From contig CAZPUM010000001.1 in assembly GCA_964589765.1 (NCBI GenBank), positions 29,118 to 93,117 of the forward strand: a DNA stretch of 64,000 nt, given 5' to 3'. This stretch comes from an uncultured Methanosarcinales archaeon. GTDB taxonomy: Archaea; Nanobdellota; Nanobdellia; Woesearchaeales; UBA525. Below are positions 7,214-53,171 of this stretch, one piece after another; within the stretch, counting starts at the first letter, position 1, and each line of letters opens with the position of its first letter. The translations under genes and the position numbers were made by a program. The notes beneath the pieces are model-generated. The model did not search any database and had not been told where the DNA came from. It was given only the letters and a program-made list of their open reading frames with translations.

Positions 7214-8898
7214 GTCCTAAGAAACCTGCCAAAAAAGCTGCTAAAAAAGGCAAGAAGGTTGTAAAGAAGGTCGTGAAAAAAAAGGTCGTGAAAAAATCTT
7301 CCAAGAAAAAAATAGTGAAGAGAATTACTAAACCTACAAAAGTTAAGAAAATCACCAAAAAAACAACCAAACCCAAAAAAGTTGCAAAAAAAGGCAAGAA
7401 GGTTGTAAAGAAGGTTGTAAAAAAATCTTCCAAGAAAAAAACAGCTAAAAAACCAACCCCAAAAAAAATTACCAAGAAACCCAAAAAAGAGATTAGAAAA
7501 GAGCTGGAGAAAAAACTTCTGATATCAGTATCAACACCTCAACCCAAGAAAAATATAGATTACCCTGTTCTTGAAGGAGCAAACATAACAAGAATTGAGG
7601 TTGCAAAAGATATTCTCAAAGAGATGAAAAAGAAACATCTCATCACAGACTGGAAAATCAACGCACTAAGCGTGAACAGAGCTAATATCTACACTGGAAA
7701 GGAGTTTGAGATTGAGAATCAGCTTACAGCTTATCGCGAAGATGTCACAGTAACAATCTACAAACGCCACAAAAACAACACAATGGGCGACGCACAGATT
7801 CAAATCACAAGCCATCTGAAACGCGACATAAGACAAGCACTGAACAAAGCTCTGCCTGTTTGTGAAGTGGCAAATAGAAAAGCGTTCCAACTACCTGAAC
7901 CTGTAGCAGACATCGAATTCCCAGAAGGACACGACAAAGAGATGTGGAATCTTTTCCAAACCGACAACAGCCTTGAGGTACCTCAAACAATTCTTGGCAA
8001 AGCAAAAAAGGCAAAATTACAGGAAGCACACATATCACAGTTTGAGGTCTTAACTTCAGCAAGTACACACAGAATCCTGAACAGTGAAGGCATAGACATC
8101 AGTTTCAAAAAAACTGCAGTGTATATCGAGGCAGCAATCCAGTCAGGAGACCAGGAGTTCTACACGAGCAGGTCAGGGGTTAGTCCCGTTCAGTTCGATA
8201 CAACAGAGATACTTGAGGATGCTGCTCTCCGCGCAAAAGATGCGGACTCCTCCAAAAAGGTAGAACCTTTCAAAGGGGATGTTCTCTTGACAAACGAATC
8301 ACTAGTCCAGTTTATGGCCAAGGGCGATGACATCAATCCTATTTTCATTCATGCCCTTGCGAGATGTGAACTTTTGGGAATGTCCAGACTTACAAAGGGA
8401 GAGCCAATAGGAGAATTCACAGGAGAATACCCTACAATCATGATTAATCCTAACCTACCGCTCGGGCTCATGACTGCCCCTGTTGATGATGATGGCACCC
8501 ATCTGAAAAACTACACTCTGTTCAGAAATGGAGTCTTCAGACGGCATATTGCGCCAGCAAGAGAAGCACAAGAACTTGGTGTGGAAGCAACAGGTCAGAT
8601 AAGTAACATCCACATTCAGGATGGTGCAACCCGTGAAGAACATCTACGGGGAGGAAACTACATAGAAATAGTGAGTTTTAGCTGGTTCCACCCCGACCCT
8701 TACTCAGGAGATTTCTCCGCAGAAATCCGCTTGGGTTACAAGTGGTATATGGGTAAAAAAACTCCCTTCAGAGGGGGCTTCTTTGTTGGCAACATTTTCA
8801 ACAGCATACTTTCTGTGAGGTTTTCTAAAGAGATTATGCAAGAAGGATATTATTATGGCCCCCGAGCAATGCTTTTCAAGGATGGTGAGATTCAGTAA
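7210..8898 (+). CDS. tldE: TldE/PmbA-family protein with an N-terminal lysine-rich, histone-H1-like repeat extension of about 100 aa.
   Basis: The C-terminal about 350 aa match PmbA/TldE and lack HExxxH. There is an ATGA overlap with tldD. The N-terminus is KKVVKK/KKxTKK repeats encoded by an internally duplicated DNA segment. Confidence 0.7.
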   Translation: MSPKKPAKKAAKKGKKVVKKVVKKKVVKKSSKKKIVKRITKPTKVKKITKKTTKPKKVAKKGKKVVKKVVKKSSKKKTAKKPTPKKITKKPKKEIRKELEKKLLISVSTPQPKKNIDYPVLEGANITRIEVAKDILKEMKKKHLITDWKINALSVNRANIYTGKEFEIENQLTAYREDVTVTIYKRHKNNTMGDAQIQITSHLKRDIRQALNKALPVCEVANRKAFQLPEPVADIEFPEGHDKEMWNLFQTDNSLEVPQTILGKAKKAKLQEAHISQFEVLTSASTHRILNSEGIDISFKKTAVYIEAAIQSGDQEFYTSRSGVSPVQFDTTEILEDAALRAKDADSSKKVEPFKGDVLLTNESLVQFMAKGDDINPIFIHALARCELLGMSRLTKGEPIGEFTGEYPTIMINPNLPLGLMTAPVDDDGTHLKNYTLFRNGVFRRHIAPAREAQELGVEATGQISNIHIQDGATREEHLRGGNYIEIVSFSWFHPDPYSGDFSAEIRLGYKWYMGKKTPFRGGFFVGNIFNSILSVRFSKEIMQEGYYYGPRAMLFKDGEIQ

Positions 8899-9439
8899 CT
8901 CTGACCCAGTCCTGGGACAAATCATCTAGCTCCTCACACCGCACATTCATCTCTTCCCAACCAGTATAGTTGACATCAGCAGTCATAGTTGTGATAACAG
9001 GGCGCGTAGTTCTGAAAGAAAGCCCGAAGTACTGCCTAAGTAGAGATATCATAACAAGTCCGTTTCCTGCCCACACACTTTGATGCGCTTCGTAACTCTC
9101 AACAAAACTCGTGGTAAGAGAATTAAAGGTCTCATAAAGAGCGGTTTCAACCGTAGGAGGGCGGGGGACTAAAGTCTCGCCCTCGACCAGTTTTTCAACC
9201 AACCCATAATCCAGAACTCTTCCAACGACAAGTTGATTTAAGACATTCACCCGGTCTTTCCCAACAATTGAAATTTTTATGTCACGGTCAATATAATCAT
9301 TTAAATCAATGAAAGACTGGACCATCTCTTTGTATAAAAGGTCATAAGAACAAGGCATGCTGAAACCTGCATTAGAAAGCTCATAAGAAGTGTATACTGA
9401 ATTAGCAAGAATCTCGACATATTTTGAGTGCATAAGCAT
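8876..9439 (-). CDS. Hypothetical protein.
   Basis: A 187-aa ORF with a clean start, lying tail-to-tail with tldE; no recognisable motif. Confidence 0.35.
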   Translation of the reverse strand: MLMHSKYVEILANSVYTSYELSNAGFSMPCSYDLLYKEMVQSFIDLNDYIDRDIKISIVGKDRVNVLNQLVVGRVLDYGLVEKLVEGETLVPRPPTVETALYETFNSLTTSFVESYEAHQSVWAGNGLVMISLLRQYFGLSFRTTRPVITTMTADVNYTGWEEMNVRCEELDDLSQDWVRVTESHHP

Positions 9440-10027: not shown

Positions 10028-10333
10028 TCAATCAAATAGTGGAGTAACTCTATCAAGTAAGTCTTGTTTTAAGCGGGGGTTGCCATAAGAGTAAACGTCA
10101 GGGATTCCTGCTGTAAAAATCTTTTTTGTCAGAAAAGCTTCTGGAAACACCTGTTTCAATTCTTCCCTTTGAAACTCTTCCATCAGCACAACGGTATCGG
10201 CCCATTCAATCTTTTCTTTTGTTACAAAATTGTTGAAAACCCCTGCATACTGAGTTGAAAAACTATCCGAAAATATCTCTGCAGCAGCTCTACTCCTATG
10301 TTTACCCTGATTACATACAAAAAGCACGTTCAT
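10028..10333 (-). CDS. Low-molecular-weight phosphatase-like protein with a CX5R motif.
   Basis: VCNQGKHRS P-loop (C-X5-R) near the N-terminus; about 100 aa. Confidence 0.45.
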   Translation of the reverse strand: MNVLFVCNQGKHRSRAAAEIFSDSFSTQYAGVFNNFVTKEKIEWADTVVLMEEFQREELKQVFPEAFLTKKIFTAGIPDVYSYGNPRLKQDLLDRVTPLFD

Positions 10334-10361
10334 TTCATACCTTAACTTTTAACACATATTT

Positions 10362-10787
10362 CTATCTTCCCGAACTACCGAACCCGCCATCTCCTCGAAC
10401 GGTATCATCGAGTTCATCCACATCCAGAATCTCGGCAGTATGGACTGGCTGGACCAGAAGCTGAGCAATTCTGTCACCTTTTCTTACTTCGTAAGGTTCA
10501 TCATGAGTGTTTAGAAGAACAATCTTCAGCTCACCACGGTAAGTGTTGTCAAGGACGCCCGCCATGGTCTTGATACCGTGTTTTGCCGCCATCCCCGACC
10601 TGTCCCAAACCAAACCAACAGTTCCTTCGGGAATGGCAAGTGCGATGGCGGTCGAGACTATGCGTCGCTCTCCCGGCTGTAGAATAACCGTCTCGTACGC
10701 ATGGATATCCATTCCCGCATCGCCAGACCTGCCGTACTTCGGCAACTGTGCATCTGAGTGTAACCTTTTAATTTTCACCTTAGTCAT
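10362..10787 (-). CDS. dut: dUTP diphosphatase.
   Basis: dUTPase motifs GDAGMD, RSG and the C-terminal GGFGSSG. Confidence 0.85.
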   Translation of the reverse strand: MTKVKIKRLHSDAQLPKYGRSGDAGMDIHAYETVILQPGERRIVSTAIALAIPEGTVGLVWDRSGMAAKHGIKTMAGVLDNTYRGELKIVLLNTHDEPYEVRKGDRIAQLLVQPVHTAEILDVDELDDTVRGDGGFGSSGR

Positions 10788-11236
10788 TTTCTTTTCCTCA
10801 TAACATCTACAATCGCTGCTTTGAAATCTTCTGGATCTTTGAAATCCATGTATACAGACGCAAACCTGATGTATGCTATCTTATCAAGGCGTTTTAGCCT
10901 CTTCATCATCAGTTCACCTATAACCTTACTGGAAACCTCTCCTGAGCGCCTCTTTTTAATCTGGTCTTCAACATAATCCAGAGCTGATTCTATCTTGGTA
11001 ACACTTATTGGACGTTTTTCACATGCTCTCAAAATACCATTTCTGAGTTTTTCACGATTAAACTGCTCTCGTCTGCCATCTCTTTTTGCAACAAGAACTG
11101 ATGTGGCTTCAACCCTTTCATAAGTAGTGAACCTCTTTTTACACTTCTTACACTCACGCCTTCTTCTTAGAGCATCTTCAGAATTTCTACTTTCTAGAAC
11201 TTTGCAATCGTCGTTTTTACAGAAAGGACATCTCAT
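10784..11236 (-). CDS. nrdR: Transcriptional repressor NrdR (zinc ribbon plus ATP-cone).
   Basis: MRCPFCKN...CKKCKKRF zinc ribbon followed by an ATP-cone; 4-bp overlap with dut. Confidence 0.8.
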   Translation of the reverse strand: MRCPFCKNDDCKVLESRNSEDALRRRRECKKCKKRFTTYERVEATSVLVAKRDGRREQFNREKLRNGILRACEKRPISVTKIESALDYVEDQIKKRRSGEVSSKVIGELMMKRLKRLDKIAYIRFASVYMDFKDPEDFKAAIVDVMRKRK

Positions 11237-11790
11237 TCAGAATCATCGGGGAAATCCCCGAAGAAGATACACTCAACCAGAGCTGACTCTTCTCCTTCTG
11301 AAGTGTGAAACGCTCTTATATTGGCAGTCGGCATCTGTGTGTGAATGTGGTCAATAATACGAAGTTTCTCATTTTCAGGAAGCTCTCCCCCAACATGAAC
11401 GATTCCATGTTTTACAAGATTGCCTGGAACCGTACTTGATAGGTTTAGCATGCCTTTGTTTAGTTCTCTTGAGTCAACACCTATGTTCTTGGTTTTTTGT
11501 TCTAAATCAATTGTTGCGGTTATTGGCAACACCATCTTGTGAAACTTGTACTCTTCCTCCATCTTCAGGAGTTTCTTAACCAGTTTCATCAGCTTTTCAT
11601 TTGATACAAAAGTGTCTGAGAATATTGCCCCAATCTCTTGGGTCATGAATTCCTCGTAGATAACCTGGTCATCAAGATGGATGGATTCCAAAACTTTTCG
11701 GAGTTCAGGCAGAGTGGACAGAGGGTCATTACTTGTCAATTCAAGTTGAAACGAAGGTAAATCAATCTTAATTTTCATACCATCCTTCAA
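11233..11790 (-). CDS. Hypothetical protein, first gene of the hyp-nrdR-dut operon.
   Basis: A 185-aa ORF with a 4-bp overlap onto nrdR; no recognised domain. Confidence 0.4.
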   Translation of the reverse strand: MKDGMKIKIDLPSFQLELTSNDPLSTLPELRKVLESIHLDDQVIYEEFMTQEIGAIFSDTFVSNEKLMKLVKKLLKMEEEYKFHKMVLPITATIDLEQKTKNIGVDSRELNKGMLNLSSTVPGNLVKHGIVHVGGELPENEKLRIIDHIHTQMPTANIRAFHTSEGEESALVECIFFGDFPDDSE

Positions 11791-19748: not shown

Positions 19749-20723
19749 CTAATAAGGCCTTCTTGTTCCATCTTCGTCCACATGGAAGTCCTCTAGAAAG
19801 TCTTCTACCGTTATAGGGTACGGTTTTTCGTAGAAGTTATGGTCGTACCTGCCCAGAATCTTGAAATCGAAATGTGAAATACCCTGTGCCCAATCCCTGA
19901 GTCGTTCTCTCACATTATCGTTATGGTCTGAATCTAGTATCTCAACACCGTTTTTGTTGACCTTGACAAAATAGGCCCATCCTCTAGCGCCCCCATCGTA
20001 GTCTTGAAACAGTTTGTAACAGTTTCCATCCGCTGAGACTCTGTCATTTCTGGACAACATCCTGATAATATCAGGTTCAGGATTCTCATAGTTAATATCT
20101 TGGGGCCTATGATGGTTACAAAGAACAACTGTTTTCCTGTTGATATAGATTCCCGCGCCTTCCAGTAACCAAGAATAAACGTTGGCCTCCTGTTTTAGGA
20201 AGAAAATGTTTGGCCCAGAACCCCCAACTAACATATCAAAGATTGAGCCCATATTTAGTTGGAATCTGAAACTATCTGCGACATGAATTTTACCACCCAA
20301 ACATTTTGCCCAGCACTCTGCGTCCTCACCGACAAAGCATCTGTAAATATCCCCTCTTCTGATAAGAGCCTCTGATACTTCGTCCACTTTTTGTGGTCGC
20401 TTTGATTTGGCCTTTTTGTATTCCTCGACACGCTCAGCGGGACTCTTACTTTGAAGCCTTTCTGTTTTTGAAGTAGTCAGTAACTCTTTATGGACAACCA
20501 TTGTTTCAACAGTCCCTTCCAGGTCCTTGTCGAAGTTTGGCCTGTATGTCCTGGCATCAATAACTCTATTATCTTTCAAAGAAAATTCAGAAAGCTCTAT
20601 TTCTACAGGAAAACCCGATTCTGGCTCTTCTGCGAACACAACATCTCCATCCGCCGTGGCGTCGAGAACTGCTCTTTCGAGCCTCCTGGCTGAATCCATC
20701 TTCACGTATATTTTCCTGCCCAT
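19749..20723 (-). CDS. Hypothetical protein.
   Basis: About 325 aa with an internal start 25-30 nt downstream of a TATA-like catataaata; no recognised family. Confidence 0.4.
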   Translation of the reverse strand: MGRKIYVKMDSARRLERAVLDATADGDVVFAEEPESGFPVEIELSEFSLKDNRVIDARTYRPNFDKDLEGTVETMVVHKELLTTSKTERLQSKSPAERVEEYKKAKSKRPQKVDEVSEALIRRGDIYRCFVGEDAECWAKCLGGKIHVADSFRFQLNMGSIFDMLVGGSGPNIFFLKQEANVYSWLLEGAGIYINRKTVVLCNHHRPQDINYENPEPDIIRMLSRNDRVSADGNCYKLFQDYDGGARGWAYFVKVNKNGVEILDSDHNDNVRERLRDWAQGISHFDFKILGRYDHNFYEKPYPITVEDFLEDFHVDEDGTRRPY

Positions 20724-28609: not shown

Positions 28610-29632
28610 ATGCGAATCACCCATAAGGACCTAAAACAGGGAACCATTGCGGTTCAAACACAAACTCCCGACGATTTATGGTATTTGACTACCATAGTTA
28701 ACGAGGGAGATATAGTGCTGGGTAGCTCTGAGTACAAATTCAAACTAGGCGGTTCAGATGCCAAGCAGAAGATTGTGAAAAAAAAGGTCACAGTTGAGCT
28801 GGAAGTGGAGAAAGTCGAACTTTCAGGAAATATAACTCGGATTTCAGGAGTTGTGACAGGAGGTTCAGAGGATGTTCCCAGGGGAAGCCACCACGGAATT
28901 GACATTGAGGAAGGTTCCAGAATAACAATCAAAAAGGAAAGATGGCTGGATTTCCAGCTCGAAAAACTAAAAGAGGCCTGTAACTCTGGCGGTTCTGGTA
29001 CAGTACTCTGTCTTTTTGACAGAGAGTTTGCCAGAATTCTCAGACTAAAGCCTAACGGGGTGGATGTTTTATCGGAGATAAAGGGCGATGTTCCCAAGAA
29101 AGGTGTTGATGAAGAGAAACAACACAGGTTTTACAAGGAGATAGCAGAAAGACTTGAAACAGTTGAGGCCCAGCAAATTCTTGCTGCCAGTCCGGCTTTC
29201 TGGAAACAGTACTTAGAGAAAGAACTTTCCGCTGAGACGAAGAATAAGACCATATTCACTTCAGTCAGCGGAACAGATGATACTGCTGTAAAAGAATTGT
29301 TGAAATCAAAAGAGTTACAGCAGGTTCTACAAAACGAACGTTCTGCCCGTGAAGAGAACATGCTCGAAGATGTTATGTCCGCCTTGGGAAAAGACATGCT
29401 CGTTTACGGCAAGGACGATGTCAAGGCGGTTCTATCAGAGGGTAACTGTCTCGCGCTTTATGTTTCTGAGAATGAGATTGTGAAAGCGCGAGCCGAGAAC
29501 AGGTATCCCTCTCTTGAGGCTATCATGAAAACCGCAGGCGACCTCGATGCAAAGGTCCGTCTGTTCTCAACACGGGAACCTATGGTTAAGATTGACGGGC
29601 TTGGCGGAGTTGTGGTGGTCAAGAGATGGTGA
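28610..29632 (+). CDS. pelA: Pelota (Dom34) ribosome-rescue factor.
   Basis: N-terminus MRITHKDLKQGTIAVQTQTPDDLWYL matches the Pelota signature; eRF1-like three-domain length about 340 aa. Internal ATG chosen 28 nt after a TATA (atatataaaag). Confidence 0.8.
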   Translation: MRITHKDLKQGTIAVQTQTPDDLWYLTTIVNEGDIVLGSSEYKFKLGGSDAKQKIVKKKVTVELEVEKVELSGNITRISGVVTGGSEDVPRGSHHGIDIEEGSRITIKKERWLDFQLEKLKEACNSGGSGTVLCLFDREFARILRLKPNGVDVLSEIKGDVPKKGVDEEKQHRFYKEIAERLETVEAQQILAASPAFWKQYLEKELSAETKNKTIFTSVSGTDDTAVKELLKSKELQQVLQNERSAREENMLEDVMSALGKDMLVYGKDDVKAVLSEGNCLALYVSENEIVKARAENRYPSLEAIMKTAGDLDAKVRLFSTREPMVKIDGLGGVVVVKRW

Positions 29633-30225
29633 TTCCGGTATTCACTGTATCAGTTCCTGAATACCAAGTTAGAAAATATGATTCAGATGGCCGAGTATTT
29701 GAAGTTCCTAATTACGGTATTGAAATACCTGAGATTTATGAGGATAACAAGCCCAACTTTGAGAAATATGGTAGAATTATTGATGGTTGTCTGAAAGAAC
29801 ATTTTCTAGGAAAAAAAGTAGCCATACGGGTTCTTGGCTCTTGTGAACACCCTAATAGAACCCAAGATGAATTGATTGAAATCATCAAAGAGATAGGACA
29901 CGATAGATATGATGCTGACCGTACAGGAGATCGATATGAAAACATTGAGAACAAAGAAATTGAAATTTTCGCCATGCCACCATATGTGGTAAAAGAAAAT
30001 GAAGAATATTTCAAAAATTTCCTAATCCCTTTTTACTATTGGCCCATCAAACAAAGAGGATATCCTGTAAGGGTTGATATTGCCATAATCTACAACCCCG
30101 CCCTGCTTATCGAAGTCCCTCACATATACAAAGGAAGGGAAAACGAACTAAAGAAAGATGGATTTGTGTTTAAAGACCCAAAAAACAAATCAAACGCCAT
30201 TATAGGCATAATAAAAATTGAATAA
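29626..30225 (+). CDS. Hypothetical protein co-operonic with pelota.
   Basis: A 199-aa ORF with a 7-bp overlap onto pelota and an 8-bp overlap onto the downstream methyltransferase. Confidence 0.4.
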   Translation: MVIPVFTVSVPEYQVRKYDSDGRVFEVPNYGIEIPEIYEDNKPNFEKYGRIIDGCLKEHFLGKKVAIRVLGSCEHPNRTQDELIEIIKEIGHDRYDADRTGDRYENIENKEIEIFAMPPYVVKENEEYFKNFLIPFYYWPIKQRGYPVRVDIAIIYNPALLIEVPHIYKGRENELKKDGFVFKDPKNKSNAIIGIIKIE

Positions 30226-50735: not shown

Positions 50736-51056
50736 TTATGCCTCTAGTATCTTTGTTACGATGAAGTTCTTTGTCTTGCTGATGGGTCTTGTTTCGCGAA
50801 TCTCAACAAGGTCGCCGGTTTTAGCACCGATGTCATTGTGTGCTTTGACCCTTGTTCTTGCCTTTGTGTAACGCTGGTACTTTGGAATGTACTTTCTTCG
50901 TTCCCAAACAACAGTTACTGTTTTGGCCATTTTATCAGAAACAACTGTGCCTGTGAAAGTTCTTCCTCTAACTGGGAAAGCGGTCTTCTCCTTCTCAGGA
51001 GTTTTTTTTGCAGACGTTTTTGTCGCCTTCTTTGCAGTGGTTTTTTCTTCGGTCAT
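50736..51056 (-). CDS. rps17: Ribosomal protein uS17.
   Basis: OB-fold S17 core (GTVVSDKMAKTVTVVWERRKY). The internal ATG at 51056 is used because the longer track ORF overlaps SUI1 and the mini-Rpp29 ORF. Confidence 0.85.
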   Translation of the reverse strand: MTEEKTTAKKATKTSAKKTPEKEKTAFPVRGRTFTGTVVSDKMAKTVTVVWERRKYIPKYQRYTKARTRVKAHNDIGAKTGDLVEIRETRPISKTKNFIVTKILEA

Positions 51057-51211
51057 TTTGTTTCCTCGATTTGGTCTTTTATTATTTTTTTTCTTTCGTT
51101 TTTGGTGTCGATGATGAGTGTGTTTTTGGTTTCGTTGACGATGGTTCCTGTTGTTCCTTGAAACGTTTTGTTGGTTGCTTTGGTAATCGTAATTGTTTCT
51201 CCGATCTTCAC
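51053..51211 (-). CDS. rnp1: Unannotated 52-codon ORF with RNase P protein Rpp29 (component 1) core similarity; GTG start.
   Basis: Translation VKIGETITITKATNKTFQGTTGTIVNETKNTLIIDTKNERKKIIKDQIEETK aligns with the archaeal Rpp29 core (...[32 protein letters not shown]...RIWKVPKD...). The GTG overlaps the SUI1 stop (GTGA) and the stop overlaps the uS17 ATG (ATGA). The position is syntenic with Rpp29 in other archaea. Confidence 0.55.
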   Translation of the reverse strand: MKIGETITITKATNKTFQGTTGTIVNETKNTLIIDTKNERKKIIKDQIEETK

Positions 51212-51519
51212 TGCTTGACCTCAATGGTTTCCGGTGCGAATCCAAGCCTGATGAGCTCGTCTTTCACGTTTCTTCGGTGGTCACCTTGGAGTTCGATTTG
51301 ACCTCCTTTGGCTGTTCCCCCGCACGCGAATTTGTTCTTGAGCTTCTTCGCCAGGTCTTTTGTGTCAACCTCGTTTTCGTTGATTCCCGTAATGACTGTA
51401 TACGCCTTACCGAACTTTTTACGGTCCAGCTTCACCATTATTTTCTGCGATTCGCGAGCGATTGCCTCACATACGCAGAGGTCTTGTGGCAGGCCACATG
51501 TGTTACAGATATCAGTCAT
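51208..51519 (-). CDS. sui1: Translation initiation factor SUI1 (aIF1).
   Basis: SUI1 domain (KAYTVITGI...KKLKNKFACGGTAK). Confidence 0.85.
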   Translation of the reverse strand: MTDICNTCGLPQDLCVCEAIARESQKIMVKLDRKKFGKAYTVITGINENEVDTKDLAKKLKNKFACGGTAKGGQIELQGDHRRNVKDELIRLGFAPETIEVKQ

Positions 51520-51716
51520 TGCTTACTCATCACCTCCTTGTTTTTTATTGTCATGATTCTAGCAATTGTTCTCTTGATTTCGCGGATTCTTCCAGACTCT
51601 TTACCAGCACCGCCAGTTGCGGCTTGGGACTTGTACTTCATGAGCTCAAAATTTGCTTTCTGAAGCTCTTTGTCCAAATCCTCCGGACTCTTTTTCTGTA
51701 AATCCTTGAATTTCAT
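51516..51716 (-). CDS. rpl29: Ribosomal protein uL29.
   Basis: L29 helical signature (LQKKSPEDLDKELQKANFELMKYKSQ). Confidence 0.8.
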   Translation of the reverse strand: MKFKDLQKKSPEDLDKELQKANFELMKYKSQAATGGAGKESGRIREIKRTIARIMTIKNKEVMSKQ

Positions 51717-52501
51717 TATTCCTTAGCCTCCTTTTCTTCGGGCTTTTTCTCTTCGACCTTCTTGGCCTGTTTCTTAGGAGATTTCTTTTTGGTCTCCTCG
51801 GATTTTTTCTCTTCCTTGGGCTCAACCTTGGCAACCTTTACAGCCTCTTCAATCTCCTTTGCTTCTTTCTTTCCCGTCACTTCTTCAACAACGGGCGCGG
51901 TTGGCATATTGATATCAATCTGGTCAGGGAGTACTGTTGTCGAGGGCATTACACTTACCTTGATTCCAACGACCCCTGTCTTGAGTTCTGCGATTCTGTA
52001 TGCTACATTGACACCTTCAACTGCGATGTCGCCTGATTTCTTCAGATACCCTTGGTAAAATCTCCAGGTCTTTCCTCTCTGGCTAGGTACTTTTCCGCTG
52101 ATTAGGATTTCAACACCTAGTGCGCCTGCGCGCATCGCTTCGAAAATCGCTTTGTGACCTATTCCTTTGAATCGTCCAGCTCCGAATCGCTCCAGACTGT
52201 TGCTGATCATCTCTGCCAGAATGTCCGGCTCAATCATTGGGTTGACAAGCTCTTCAATCTCAATCTGGGGGTTCTCCAGCTTGAAATCTTCTTTCAGTTC
52301 CTTTGTAAGCTGGTGGATGTTCTGTCCTCCACGTCCTACAACAAGTCCTGGCCTGCTACAACTGACCAAGATTTTCTCACCAAGTGGTGTTCTCTGGAGC
52401 TTAACTCTTGCAACACCAACCTTCCCTAGGCTGTTGAAGATATGCTCCTTTATCTGGAACTCGCGCATTTTCTGCTGGATGAATTTTCGTTCGATTGCCA
52501 T
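51716..52501 (-). CDS. rps3: Ribosomal protein uS3 with a K/E-rich C-terminal tail.
   Basis: KH domain plus S3 C-terminal domain. Confidence 0.9.
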   Translation of the reverse strand: MAIERKFIQQKMREFQIKEHIFNSLGKVGVARVKLQRTPLGEKILVSCSRPGLVVGRGGQNIHQLTKELKEDFKLENPQIEIEELVNPMIEPDILAEMISNSLERFGAGRFKGIGHKAIFEAMRAGALGVEILISGKVPSQRGKTWRFYQGYLKKSGDIAVEGVNVAYRIAELKTGVVGIKVSVMPSTTVLPDQIDINMPTAPVVEEVTGKKEAKEIEEAVKVAKVEPKEEKKSEETKKKSPKKQAKKVEEKKPEEKEAKE

Positions 52502-52505
52502 ATGA

Positions 52506-53171
52506 TTATTCCTTCTTTGCCTCTTCAGGCTTTTCTTCTACCTTTTCAACAGGCTTTTCCTCAACCTTCTCTTTTGAAACTTCCTTGTTATCTACAGGCT
52601 TTGGTTTTTCCTTTGATTCCTGTTTCTTAGGCTCAGGCTTCTGTTCCTCTTTTGGTGTTTCATCGGCCTCAGGCTTAGGTGTCTCTTTTTTCTCTGCAGG
52701 TTTTTCAGCTTTCTTTGGTTCAGATTTCTTCTTCGCCTTTTTCTCAGTCTCAACCACTATTACCTCAAGATGAGTCCTCTTGAACTCCCCACGGTACTTT
52801 GAGCGGTTTCTCATTGGCCTGCTTGCTCTGTTTGCCGCAAGGTGCTTGATTACAAGTGTTCCTGTGAAACCTTGCGCAGTTGCGTTGGCCTTTACAGCCG
52901 TGAACAAAACCAGGAACTCTGTGGCTGCCTTGACAGGGTATCGCCCTGCGCCCATTTTTCCTGGTCTATGTCCTACACCATCTGTGAATCTTTTGAATGG
53001 AATGGCTTGTGTCTTGCTTTTAACGCCTTCAAGAATTGTTATAGCATGTTCTATCTCTTTCCCTCTTAGGAAATTGCAAACCTCGATTGCGACCTTCGTA
53101 CTAATCGAAACGTCCTTTGCCATAGCTCTGGCGGACTTGGTCTCAACCGTTGTCATGTATGTGTGTGCCAT
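52506..53171 (-). CDS. rpl22: Ribosomal protein uL22 with a K/E/P-rich C-terminal tail.
   Basis: L22 core followed by AKKKSEPKKAEKPAEKKETPKPE.... Confidence 0.85.
   Translation of the reverse strand: MAHTYMTTVETKSARAMAKDVSISTKVAIEVCNFLRGKEIEHAITILEGVKSKTQAIPFKRFTDGVGHRPGKMGAGRYPVKAATEFLVLFTAVKANATAQGFTGTLVIKHLAANRASRPMRNRSKYRGEFKRTHLEVIVVETEKKAKKKSEPKKAEKPAEKKETPKPEADETPKEEQKPEPKKQESKEKPKPVDNKEVSKEKVEEKPVEKVEEKPEEAKKE

Follow-up and report, generated by a model that had tools for sequence, protein, structure and literature searches.

A half-size Rpp29 homologue between SUI1 and uS17 in a Woesearchaeal ribosomal protein operon

How short can Rpp29, protein component 1 of archaeal RNase P, become and still be kept by selection? 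The question is raised by a 64,000-nucleotide (nt) stretch from an uncultured archaeon of the Woesearchaeales (contig CAZPUM010000001.1, positions 29,118 to 93,117; this whole stretch is referred to below as the window). Here, the slot between the genes of the translation factor SUI1 and the ribosomal protein uS17 is filled by an open reading frame (ORF) of only 52 codons, which we call mini-Rpp29. In the solved archaeal holoenzyme, Rpp29 links the catalytic-domain proteins, Pop5-Rpp30, with the specificity-domain (S-domain) proteins, Rpp21-L7Ae. We consider it probable that mini-Rpp29 is a true gene that purifying selection maintains and that it encodes a minimised Rpp29, most likely one that still sits on RNase P RNA. 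The shortened form and the loss of the gene in relatives suggest that RNase P, which processes tRNAs, is undergoing reduction in these tiny archaea.

The 52-codon frame and its match to the Rpp29 core

The mini-Rpp29 frame is located on the minus strand (Table 1), starts with GTG, ends with a TGA stop after 52 codons and is translated as VKIGETITITKATNKTFQGTTGTIVNETKNTLIIDTKNERKKIIKDQIEETK. Since an in-frame stop lies three codons 5' of the GTG, this GTG is the earliest possible start. The preliminary description of this DNA had placed a 52-codon GTG frame in the SUI1-uS17 slot, overlapping both neighbours, and had taken its product for an Rpp29 homologue. The ORF list and a reading of the minus strand agree with the former claim. 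The latter was borne out by the comparison that the description had proposed, with the Pfam family of the RNase P/MRP p29 subunit, PF01868. Mini-Rpp29 matched this family with an E-value of 1.3e-9 and 38.3 bits, against a gathering cutoff of 27, and its residues 3-47 were aligned to profile positions 9-54 of 84 only. The chance that a random 52-codon frame of the same composition stays open (p ~0.04) is irrelevant in view of this homology, which is above the gathering score. NCBIfam, structural comparison with Foldseek and a profile of the short family concurred. The best two NCBIfam matches were models of 'ribonuclease P protein component 1' (NF046110 and NF003020), and the short-family profile matched Rpp29 of Methanocaldococcus jannaschii (6K0A_E) with an E-value of 1.2e-10, residues 2-46 aligning onto residues 12-57 of 95.

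An AlphaFold2 (AF2) model of mini-Rpp29 was built from an alignment of homologues, full-length ones included. The model had a mean pLDDT of 86.4 and contained five strands, at residues 6-12, 21-27, 31-35, 40-44 and 48-51. The top Foldseek matches in the PDB were all archaeal Rpp29 structures (1TS9, 6K0A chain E, 1TSF, 2ZAE, 1V76 and 2KI7), which superposed with query-normalised TM-scores (TMq) of 0.76-0.81 and a root-mean-square deviation of 0.9-1.6 Å over 43-50 residues at 29-33% identity. Spt5 KOW domains (TMq ~0.7) and ribosomal-subunit chains followed below them. KOW/SH3-like five-strand barrels such as those of Spt5 thus resemble the model in structure, but their identity was only 13-22%, none of these families was matched significantly, and mini-Rpp29 carries the signature residues of Rpp29 instead. 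A weak match to L21e was also obtained in Pfam (E=0.036). The Rpp29 barrel is described in the literature as having seven strands (PMC4919917). The AF2 model of the lineage's own 82-amino-acid (aa) Rpp29 showed six strands and C-terminal helices, and mini-Rpp29 would therefore be without one strand and the helices. On these models, mini-Rpp29 is predicted to correspond to the Rpp29 barrel from strand 1 to strand 4, followed by a short strand 5.

The hallmark of Rpp29 is a G-x4-ET motif together with a lysine that forms a salt bridge with its glutamate; in the Pyrococcus furiosus (Pfu) protein these residues are G68, E73, T74 and K91 (Samanta et al., PMC4919917). Mini-Rpp29 keeps G4 (of the L-I-G motif), G19, G22, the G-x4-ET loop with E27 and T28, and the salt-bridge lysine, K45. 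Four of these, G22, E27, T28 and K45, do not vary in either the short family or the full-length relatives. The invariant residues are G4, N14, G22, E27, T28 and K45 and thus include the G-x4-ET and lysine positions of the family. The phenylalanine of the K-x4-F motif (Pfu F96) is lost: the window protein ends K45-D-Q-I-E-E-T-K, with glutamate at the fifth position after the lysine, where other short forms have threonine. Mini-Rpp29 likewise has no late-loop glycine (Pfu G110), no IDG segment, no last (sixth) strand and no RPEDR(I/L)K helix or tail at its C-terminus. At the other end, the protein begins directly with x-I-G. Full-length relatives have ~10-14 further residues before this motif, which mini-Rpp29 lacks, and among them are the positions that contact Rpp21; in Pfu Rpp29 these are H46 and E47, located just before L-I-G, which salt-bridge to Rpp21 (PMC4919917). 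Within the holoenzyme of M. jannaschii, Rpp30 receives the C-terminal tail of Rpp29, and its own tail extends the Rpp29 barrel by a strand at the edge (PMC6565675).

Distribution of the short form and loss of the gene among relatives

Relatives were collected by a SUI1-based scan that retained one genome per species and yielded 80 loci, each taken with 10 kb on either side. Most of these were titled Woesearchaeota or Nanoarchaeota, and many others carried generic or apparently wrong titles ('uncultured Methanosarcinales'). The SUI1-uS17 slot holds an Rpp29 of 77-100 aa ending in KRPEDRIK in 69 of the 80 species loci, which confirms the canonical SUI1-Rpp29-uS17 order that the preliminary description had expected from synteny. 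That description had also set the peptide against a norm of 95-130 aa for Rpp29. Mini-Rpp29 is indeed far shorter, but full-length proteins in this group have 77-100 aa, so that it reaches ~60% of the local norm. Two of the closest loci contained proteins bounded like the window copy at both termini, a 48-aa Rpp29 in L001 (SUI1 83% identical) and a 54-aa Rpp29 in L003 (SUI1 79% identical). In the similarly close locus L002 (CAYNGK01; SUI1 82% identical) there was no Rpp29, and a 6-codon ORF, MKGRSP*, at 10314-10334 retained the ATGA overlap onto uS17. Rpp29 was likewise not found within 10 kb on either side in L013, L018, L038, L049, L062, L068, L069 and L073. The last of these (10296-10390) contains a decayed in-frame remnant, ERELIDSQLKRIGSRNFSLVDSQ, fused upstream of uS17.

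The short form is also present in public metagenomes. Exact-sequence look-ups with the 52-aa peptide, SUI1 and uS17 returned no entry. A single-sequence word-index search with the 52-aa peptide gave no match, while a three-sequence alignment from related loci succeeded. The profile of three short proteins retrieved ~23 clusters (90% identity) of 52-68 aa, which share the boundaries M-x-IG ... IIKDQ-I-x-x-EE and have the consensus MLIGKTITIKEAKNKSLxGKxGxVIDETKNTITIKTxxKxITIIKDQIITIEExx. All of these clusters had a precomputed PF01868 match, and several had been named 'RNase P/RNase MRP subunit p29' by the Joint Genome Institute (JGI). An exhaustive search of 1.84 billion representatives (50% identity) gave 540 matches at E<=0.001, and ~28 of the best 150 of these were no longer than 67 aa. 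In all genomic contexts that were fetched, SUI1, short Rpp29 and uS17 occurred in that order, usually with a 4-nt overlap onto uS17. Among the genomes with the short form are UBA525 (contig DAGG01000025) and DPANNHV_H2.bin.42 (contig JAAOYH010000046), and the copies P0019 and P0001 lie on contigs of 94-256 kb. The preliminary description had called the gene hidden. It is missed by an ORF track with a 60-aa minimum, but proteins of this kind, with PF01868 matches, are already present in public gene calls. Parts of the half-size family are therefore auto-annotated already, and no description of it was found in the literature searched. Mini-Rpp29 is much shorter than any Rpp29 reported in that literature, where the shortest quoted has 84 aa, from Pyrobaculum (PMC13462272).

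When nine ribosomal proteins were used for a rough neighbour-joining tree, which carries no bootstrap support, the short forms grouped as a single clade, (window, L001), (L002, (L003, (L081, L088))), with L049 as its sister. On this tree the truncation appears to mark a single Woesearchaeota clade and to have been maintained there since. The 9 of 80 species loci in which Rpp29 is missing are spread over about six separate positions in the tree, and the absences other than L002 and L049 fall at about five. A second short type, of 62 aa, was found in a distant DPANN lineage with 29-31% GC and a ribosomal protein distance of 0.52 from the window. It keeps about nine N-terminal residues and has the same C-terminal cut point, the same slot, and overlapping starts and stops (Table 1). 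The C-terminal truncation therefore arose more than once.

Selection on the short form was examined with Nei-Gojobori estimates of the ratio of nonsynonymous to synonymous divergence (dN/dS). In most pairs the ratio was 0.16-0.38 for short Rpp29, compared to 0.04-0.09 for SUI1 and 0.07-0.37 for uS17 in the same genome pairs. The excess of synonymous over nonsynonymous change was significant in six of eight pairs (p=8e-6 to 4e-3). When the divergence of the 46-residue core was expressed relative to that of the ribosomal proteins in matched distance bins, the values for short and full-length forms were similar (0.46 vs 0.42 and 0.58 vs 0.55). Collectively, these coding-sequence comparisons indicate that short Rpp29 is a protein under purifying selection and not a drifting remnant.

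A probable place in RNase P and the competing explanations

Continued action of mini-Rpp29 in RNase P is plausible. RNase P RNA was not found in the 64-kb window with Rfam, either at the gathering threshold or at E<=10, nor in eight related loci at the gathering threshold, and a Pfam scan of 30 further window ORFs did not find the Rpp21, Rpp30, Pop5 or HARP families. No tRNA gene, rRNA or other Rfam family was present anywhere in the window (1-64000), where the sole sub-threshold match was a chance-level thermometer at 8603-8627, and 45 related loci gave only eight tRNA predictions, one of them doubtful. The step from an Rpp29 remnant to an RNase P RNA elsewhere in the genome, which the preliminary description had taken, is weaker than assumed there because close relatives have lost the gene entirely. 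Biochemically, Rpp21-Rpp29 raises substrate affinity ~16-fold, whereas Pop5-Rpp30 raises the cleavage rate, and for an RNase P RNA without an S-domain Pop5-Rpp30 is sufficient (PMC3001054). No HARP was detected in DPANN genomes (PMC6380272). In the type T RNase P of the Thermoproteaceae (Pyrobaculum), Rpp29 (84 aa), Rpp30 and Pop5 are shorter, Rpp21 has been lost and the S-domain of the RNA is minimal (PMC13462272). Because of these facts, a reduced but working RNase P is the most economical reading, and the same facts explain why Rpp29 can be lost.

Archaeal Rpp29 proteins (PF01868; 1TS9, 1V76, 1OQK, 2KI7, 2ZAE and 6K0A chain E) share with it the slot, the barrel core, the G-x4-ET loop and the lysine, but measure 95-127 aa in the solved proteins and 77-100 aa in Woesearchaeal relatives, compared to 52 aa here. 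Type T RNase P has shrunk as well and provides a precedent for a reduced enzyme. However, this enzyme comes from another phylum, and the barrel of its 84-aa Rpp29 is complete, whereas mini-Rpp29 is cut much deeper. Other DPANN archaea have also trimmed or abandoned RNase P, in keeping with the Woesearchaeal locus, from which Rpp29 is repeatedly absent: to our knowledge, Nanoarchaeum equitans has no RNase P at all. The nanoarchaeal Nst1 has a smaller RNase P RNA and no Pop5 (PMC4919917). These nanoarchaeal reductions are described as presence or absence of whole subunits, unlike the conserved half-size mini-Rpp29.

If mini-Rpp29 does act in RNase P, it would most likely bind RNase P RNA beside Rpp21 as a small basic wedge with a net charge of ~+3, and this wedge would help to position the S-domain and the tRNA elbow. 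The protein scaffold of the enzyme, and probably the S-domain of its RNA too, would be reduced, by analogy with the type T enzyme of Pyrobaculum. A strand from a partner could complete the exposed edge of the barrel in trans, as by the Rpp30 tail in M. jannaschii. Production of the peptide would be tied to that of its neighbours, in that ribosomes ending SUI1 probably restart at the mini-Rpp29 GTG and those ending mini-Rpp29 probably restart at the uS17 ATG.

Several observations weigh against a minimised Rpp29 that still works in RNase P. The lost parts are those that tie Rpp29 to Rpp21 (the H46/E47 equivalents; PMC4919917) and Rpp30 (the C-terminal tail; PMC6565675). RNase P RNA, Rpp21, Rpp30 and Pop5 were not found in the searches of this genome, which covered 64 kb, and Rpp29 is dispensable or relocated in the group, given its loss in L002 of the same clade and in 9 of 80 loci. 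Both NCBIfam equivalog cutoffs were missed (39.3 bits vs 90 and 24.7 bits vs 154), a shortfall that reflects the shortness of mini-Rpp29. The AF2 model had full-length homologues in its alignment and so is no proof that the 52-aa chain would be stable by itself. The L001 copy is evolving faster, with dN/dS values of up to 0.64 and a ratio of core to ribosomal protein distance of 1.9-2.2, above the 95th percentile (1.76) of full-length pairs. A possible, though doubtful, explanation built on such points is that the protein no longer takes part in RNase P. The ORF would then be kept mainly for translational coupling of SUI1 to uS17 and for the uS17 ribosome-binding site, or the barrel would bind RNA in a different role, perhaps a ribosome-linked one. 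The repeated complete losses in relatives, one of them within the same clade, the missing Rpp21 and Rpp30 contacts and the relaxed L001 copy all speak for it. So do the GAGGA for uS17 within the last mini-Rpp29 codons and the 6-codon MKGRSP* of L002, whose preserved ATGA overlap suggests that the coupling arrangement itself is under selection. The best structural matches after Rpp29, namely Spt5 KOW domains and ribosomal-subunit chains, count in its favour as well. This explanation is difficult to reconcile with selection at the protein level (dN/dS 0.16-0.38), with a rate of change that matches that of full-length cores and with invariant residues that are the Rpp29 signature residues. As the L002 version illustrates, a coupling ORF requires neither 52 codons nor a conserved fold, and there is no positive evidence for another function.

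DPANN genomes are known for split genes, and the truncation of mini-Rpp29 falls at a clean secondary-structure boundary. The missing C-terminal part (strand 6 and the RPEDR helix) might have a gene of its own at another site, with assembly of the two halves as in Nanoarchaeum, but we regard this as improbable. A hidden Markov model (HMM) of the 28 missing C-terminal positions and a motif scan, applied to all six frames of the window and the clade loci, found nothing better than E=0.5, while the same C-terminal HMM gave 68 matches in the six-frame ORFs of all loci. It is more improbable still, and scarcely to be credited, that mini-Rpp29 is not a gene at all, the region being read as an N-terminal extension of uS17 or resulting from a frameshift or assembly artefact in a full-length Rpp29. 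A 169-aa ORF with a TTG start (50736..51245) does span the region in another frame. This extension frame was rejected, since only residues 99-165 of the 169 match uS17 in Pfam, the extension is of low complexity with no family match, and in relatives uS17 begins at the ATG homologous to that of the window. The idea of a frameshift or of an artefact of assembly was rejected on the grounds that this short ORF recurs, with identical ends, in many independent assemblies; moreover, uS17 begins directly after mini-Rpp29, which leaves no space for a frameshifted remainder.

On the preferred reading of a minimised Rpp29, a selectively maintained natural protein without both linking ends is the smallest Rpp29 that evolution tolerates, and mini-Rpp29 offers a ready-made minimal construct for reconstitution. 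The full-length, half-size and absent forms point to DPANN lineages in which the architecture of RNase P is probably undergoing stepwise simplification. We suggest only tentatively, as a proposal that may well fail, that this Woesearchaeota clade has cut the S-domain module of RNase P further than any described type. It would have a five-strand Rpp29 barrel of 52-60 aa with neither the Rpp30-docking tail nor the Rpp21-contacting N-terminus, and its sister lineages would have no Rpp29. The group would then show, stage by stage, how an RNase P becomes poor in protein or loses its S-domain, or how tRNAs come to be made leaderless and independently of RNase P, as in Nanoarchaeum equitans. A practical consequence concerns annotation. 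Gene finders and ORF tracks with a 60-aa floor miss mini-Rpp29, so that calls of 'RNase P subunit absent' and estimates of completeness in DPANN can err.

Gene neighbourhood and other features of the window

Mini-Rpp29 lies in an archaeal S10-spc operon with the gene order uL3-uL4-uL23-uL2-uS19-uL22-uS3-uL29-SUI1-[mini-Rpp29]-uS17-uL14-uL24-eS4-uL5 (Table 1); the presence of Rpp29 in this operon has already been described (PMC4919917). The junction between SUI1 and Rpp29 takes the form of ATGA, TGAATG or a 2-nt spacer in relatives. The 4-nt overlap between Rpp29 and uS17 was also found in L001, L081-L086, L088-L090, L091 and the P0005 contigs. In addition to the two Shine-Dalgarno-like sequences listed in Table 1, GAGG- or AGGAG-like motifs occur 5' of SUI1, uL29, uS17, uL14 and other operon genes. 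The C-terminal 'IEE/TEE' of the short family is conserved, and the uS17 Shine-Dalgarno-like signal may be a partial constraint on it. Within mini-Rpp29, an A-rich run, gaaagaaaaaaaataataaaag (51075-51095, minus strand), encodes ERKKIIK and contains eight consecutive A's. Such a run is prone to slippage or sequencing error, and the frame is nonetheless intact and conserved.

Table 1. Positions of mini-Rpp29, its junctions and its neighbours in the window, and of the 62-aa form in other loci
Feature	Position	Strand	Evidence or remark
Mini-Rpp29 coding sequence	51053..51211	-	ORF list, strand read, PF01868, AF2, Foldseek, dN/dS
GTGA junction: SUI1 TGA (51210-51208) and mini-Rpp29 GTG (51211-51209), two bases in common	51208..51211	-	
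ATGA junction: mini-Rpp29 TGA (51055-51053) and uS17 ATG (51056-51054)	51053..51056	-	
Shine-Dalgarno-like GAGGT, 6 nt 5' of the mini-Rpp29 GTG, within the last SUI1 codons	51218..51222	-	Consensus match only
Shine-Dalgarno-like GAGGA for uS17, within the last mini-Rpp29 codons (I-E-E)	51063..51067	-	Consensus match only
SUI1/YciH-type translation factor, 103 aa, upstream neighbour	51208..51519	-	PF01253 E=2.2e-21; NF002096 144 bits vs cutoff 98
Ribosomal protein uS17, 106 aa, downstream neighbour	50736..51056	-	PF00366 E=3.1e-24
62-aa Rpp29	L092 3001-3189; L093 125-313; L094 3001-3189		Complete internal gene

Other proteins of the operon have features of their own. The uS17 of the window and of its clade is without the C-x-D-x2-CPFHG zinc knuckle of most Woesearchaeal uS17 proteins and has an N-terminus rich in lysine, threonine and alanine in its stead. 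Lysine- and glutamate-rich C-terminal tails of ~60-80 residues were observed in uS3 (51716-52501, minus strand, 261 aa) and uL22 (52506-53171, minus strand, 221 aa). Elsewhere in the window, four ORFs of 181-324 aa had no Pfam match at E<=0.01: 29626-30225 on the plus strand, and 11233-11778, 8876-9439 and 19749-20723 on the minus strand. The one of 199 aa among these is located between a Pelota/eRF1-like gene and a gene for an FmrO-type rRNA methyltransferase. Finally, a repressor of the bacterial NrdR type, with a zinc ribbon and an ATP-cone, adjoins a dUTPase (10784-11236 and 10362-10787, respectively, both on the minus strand).

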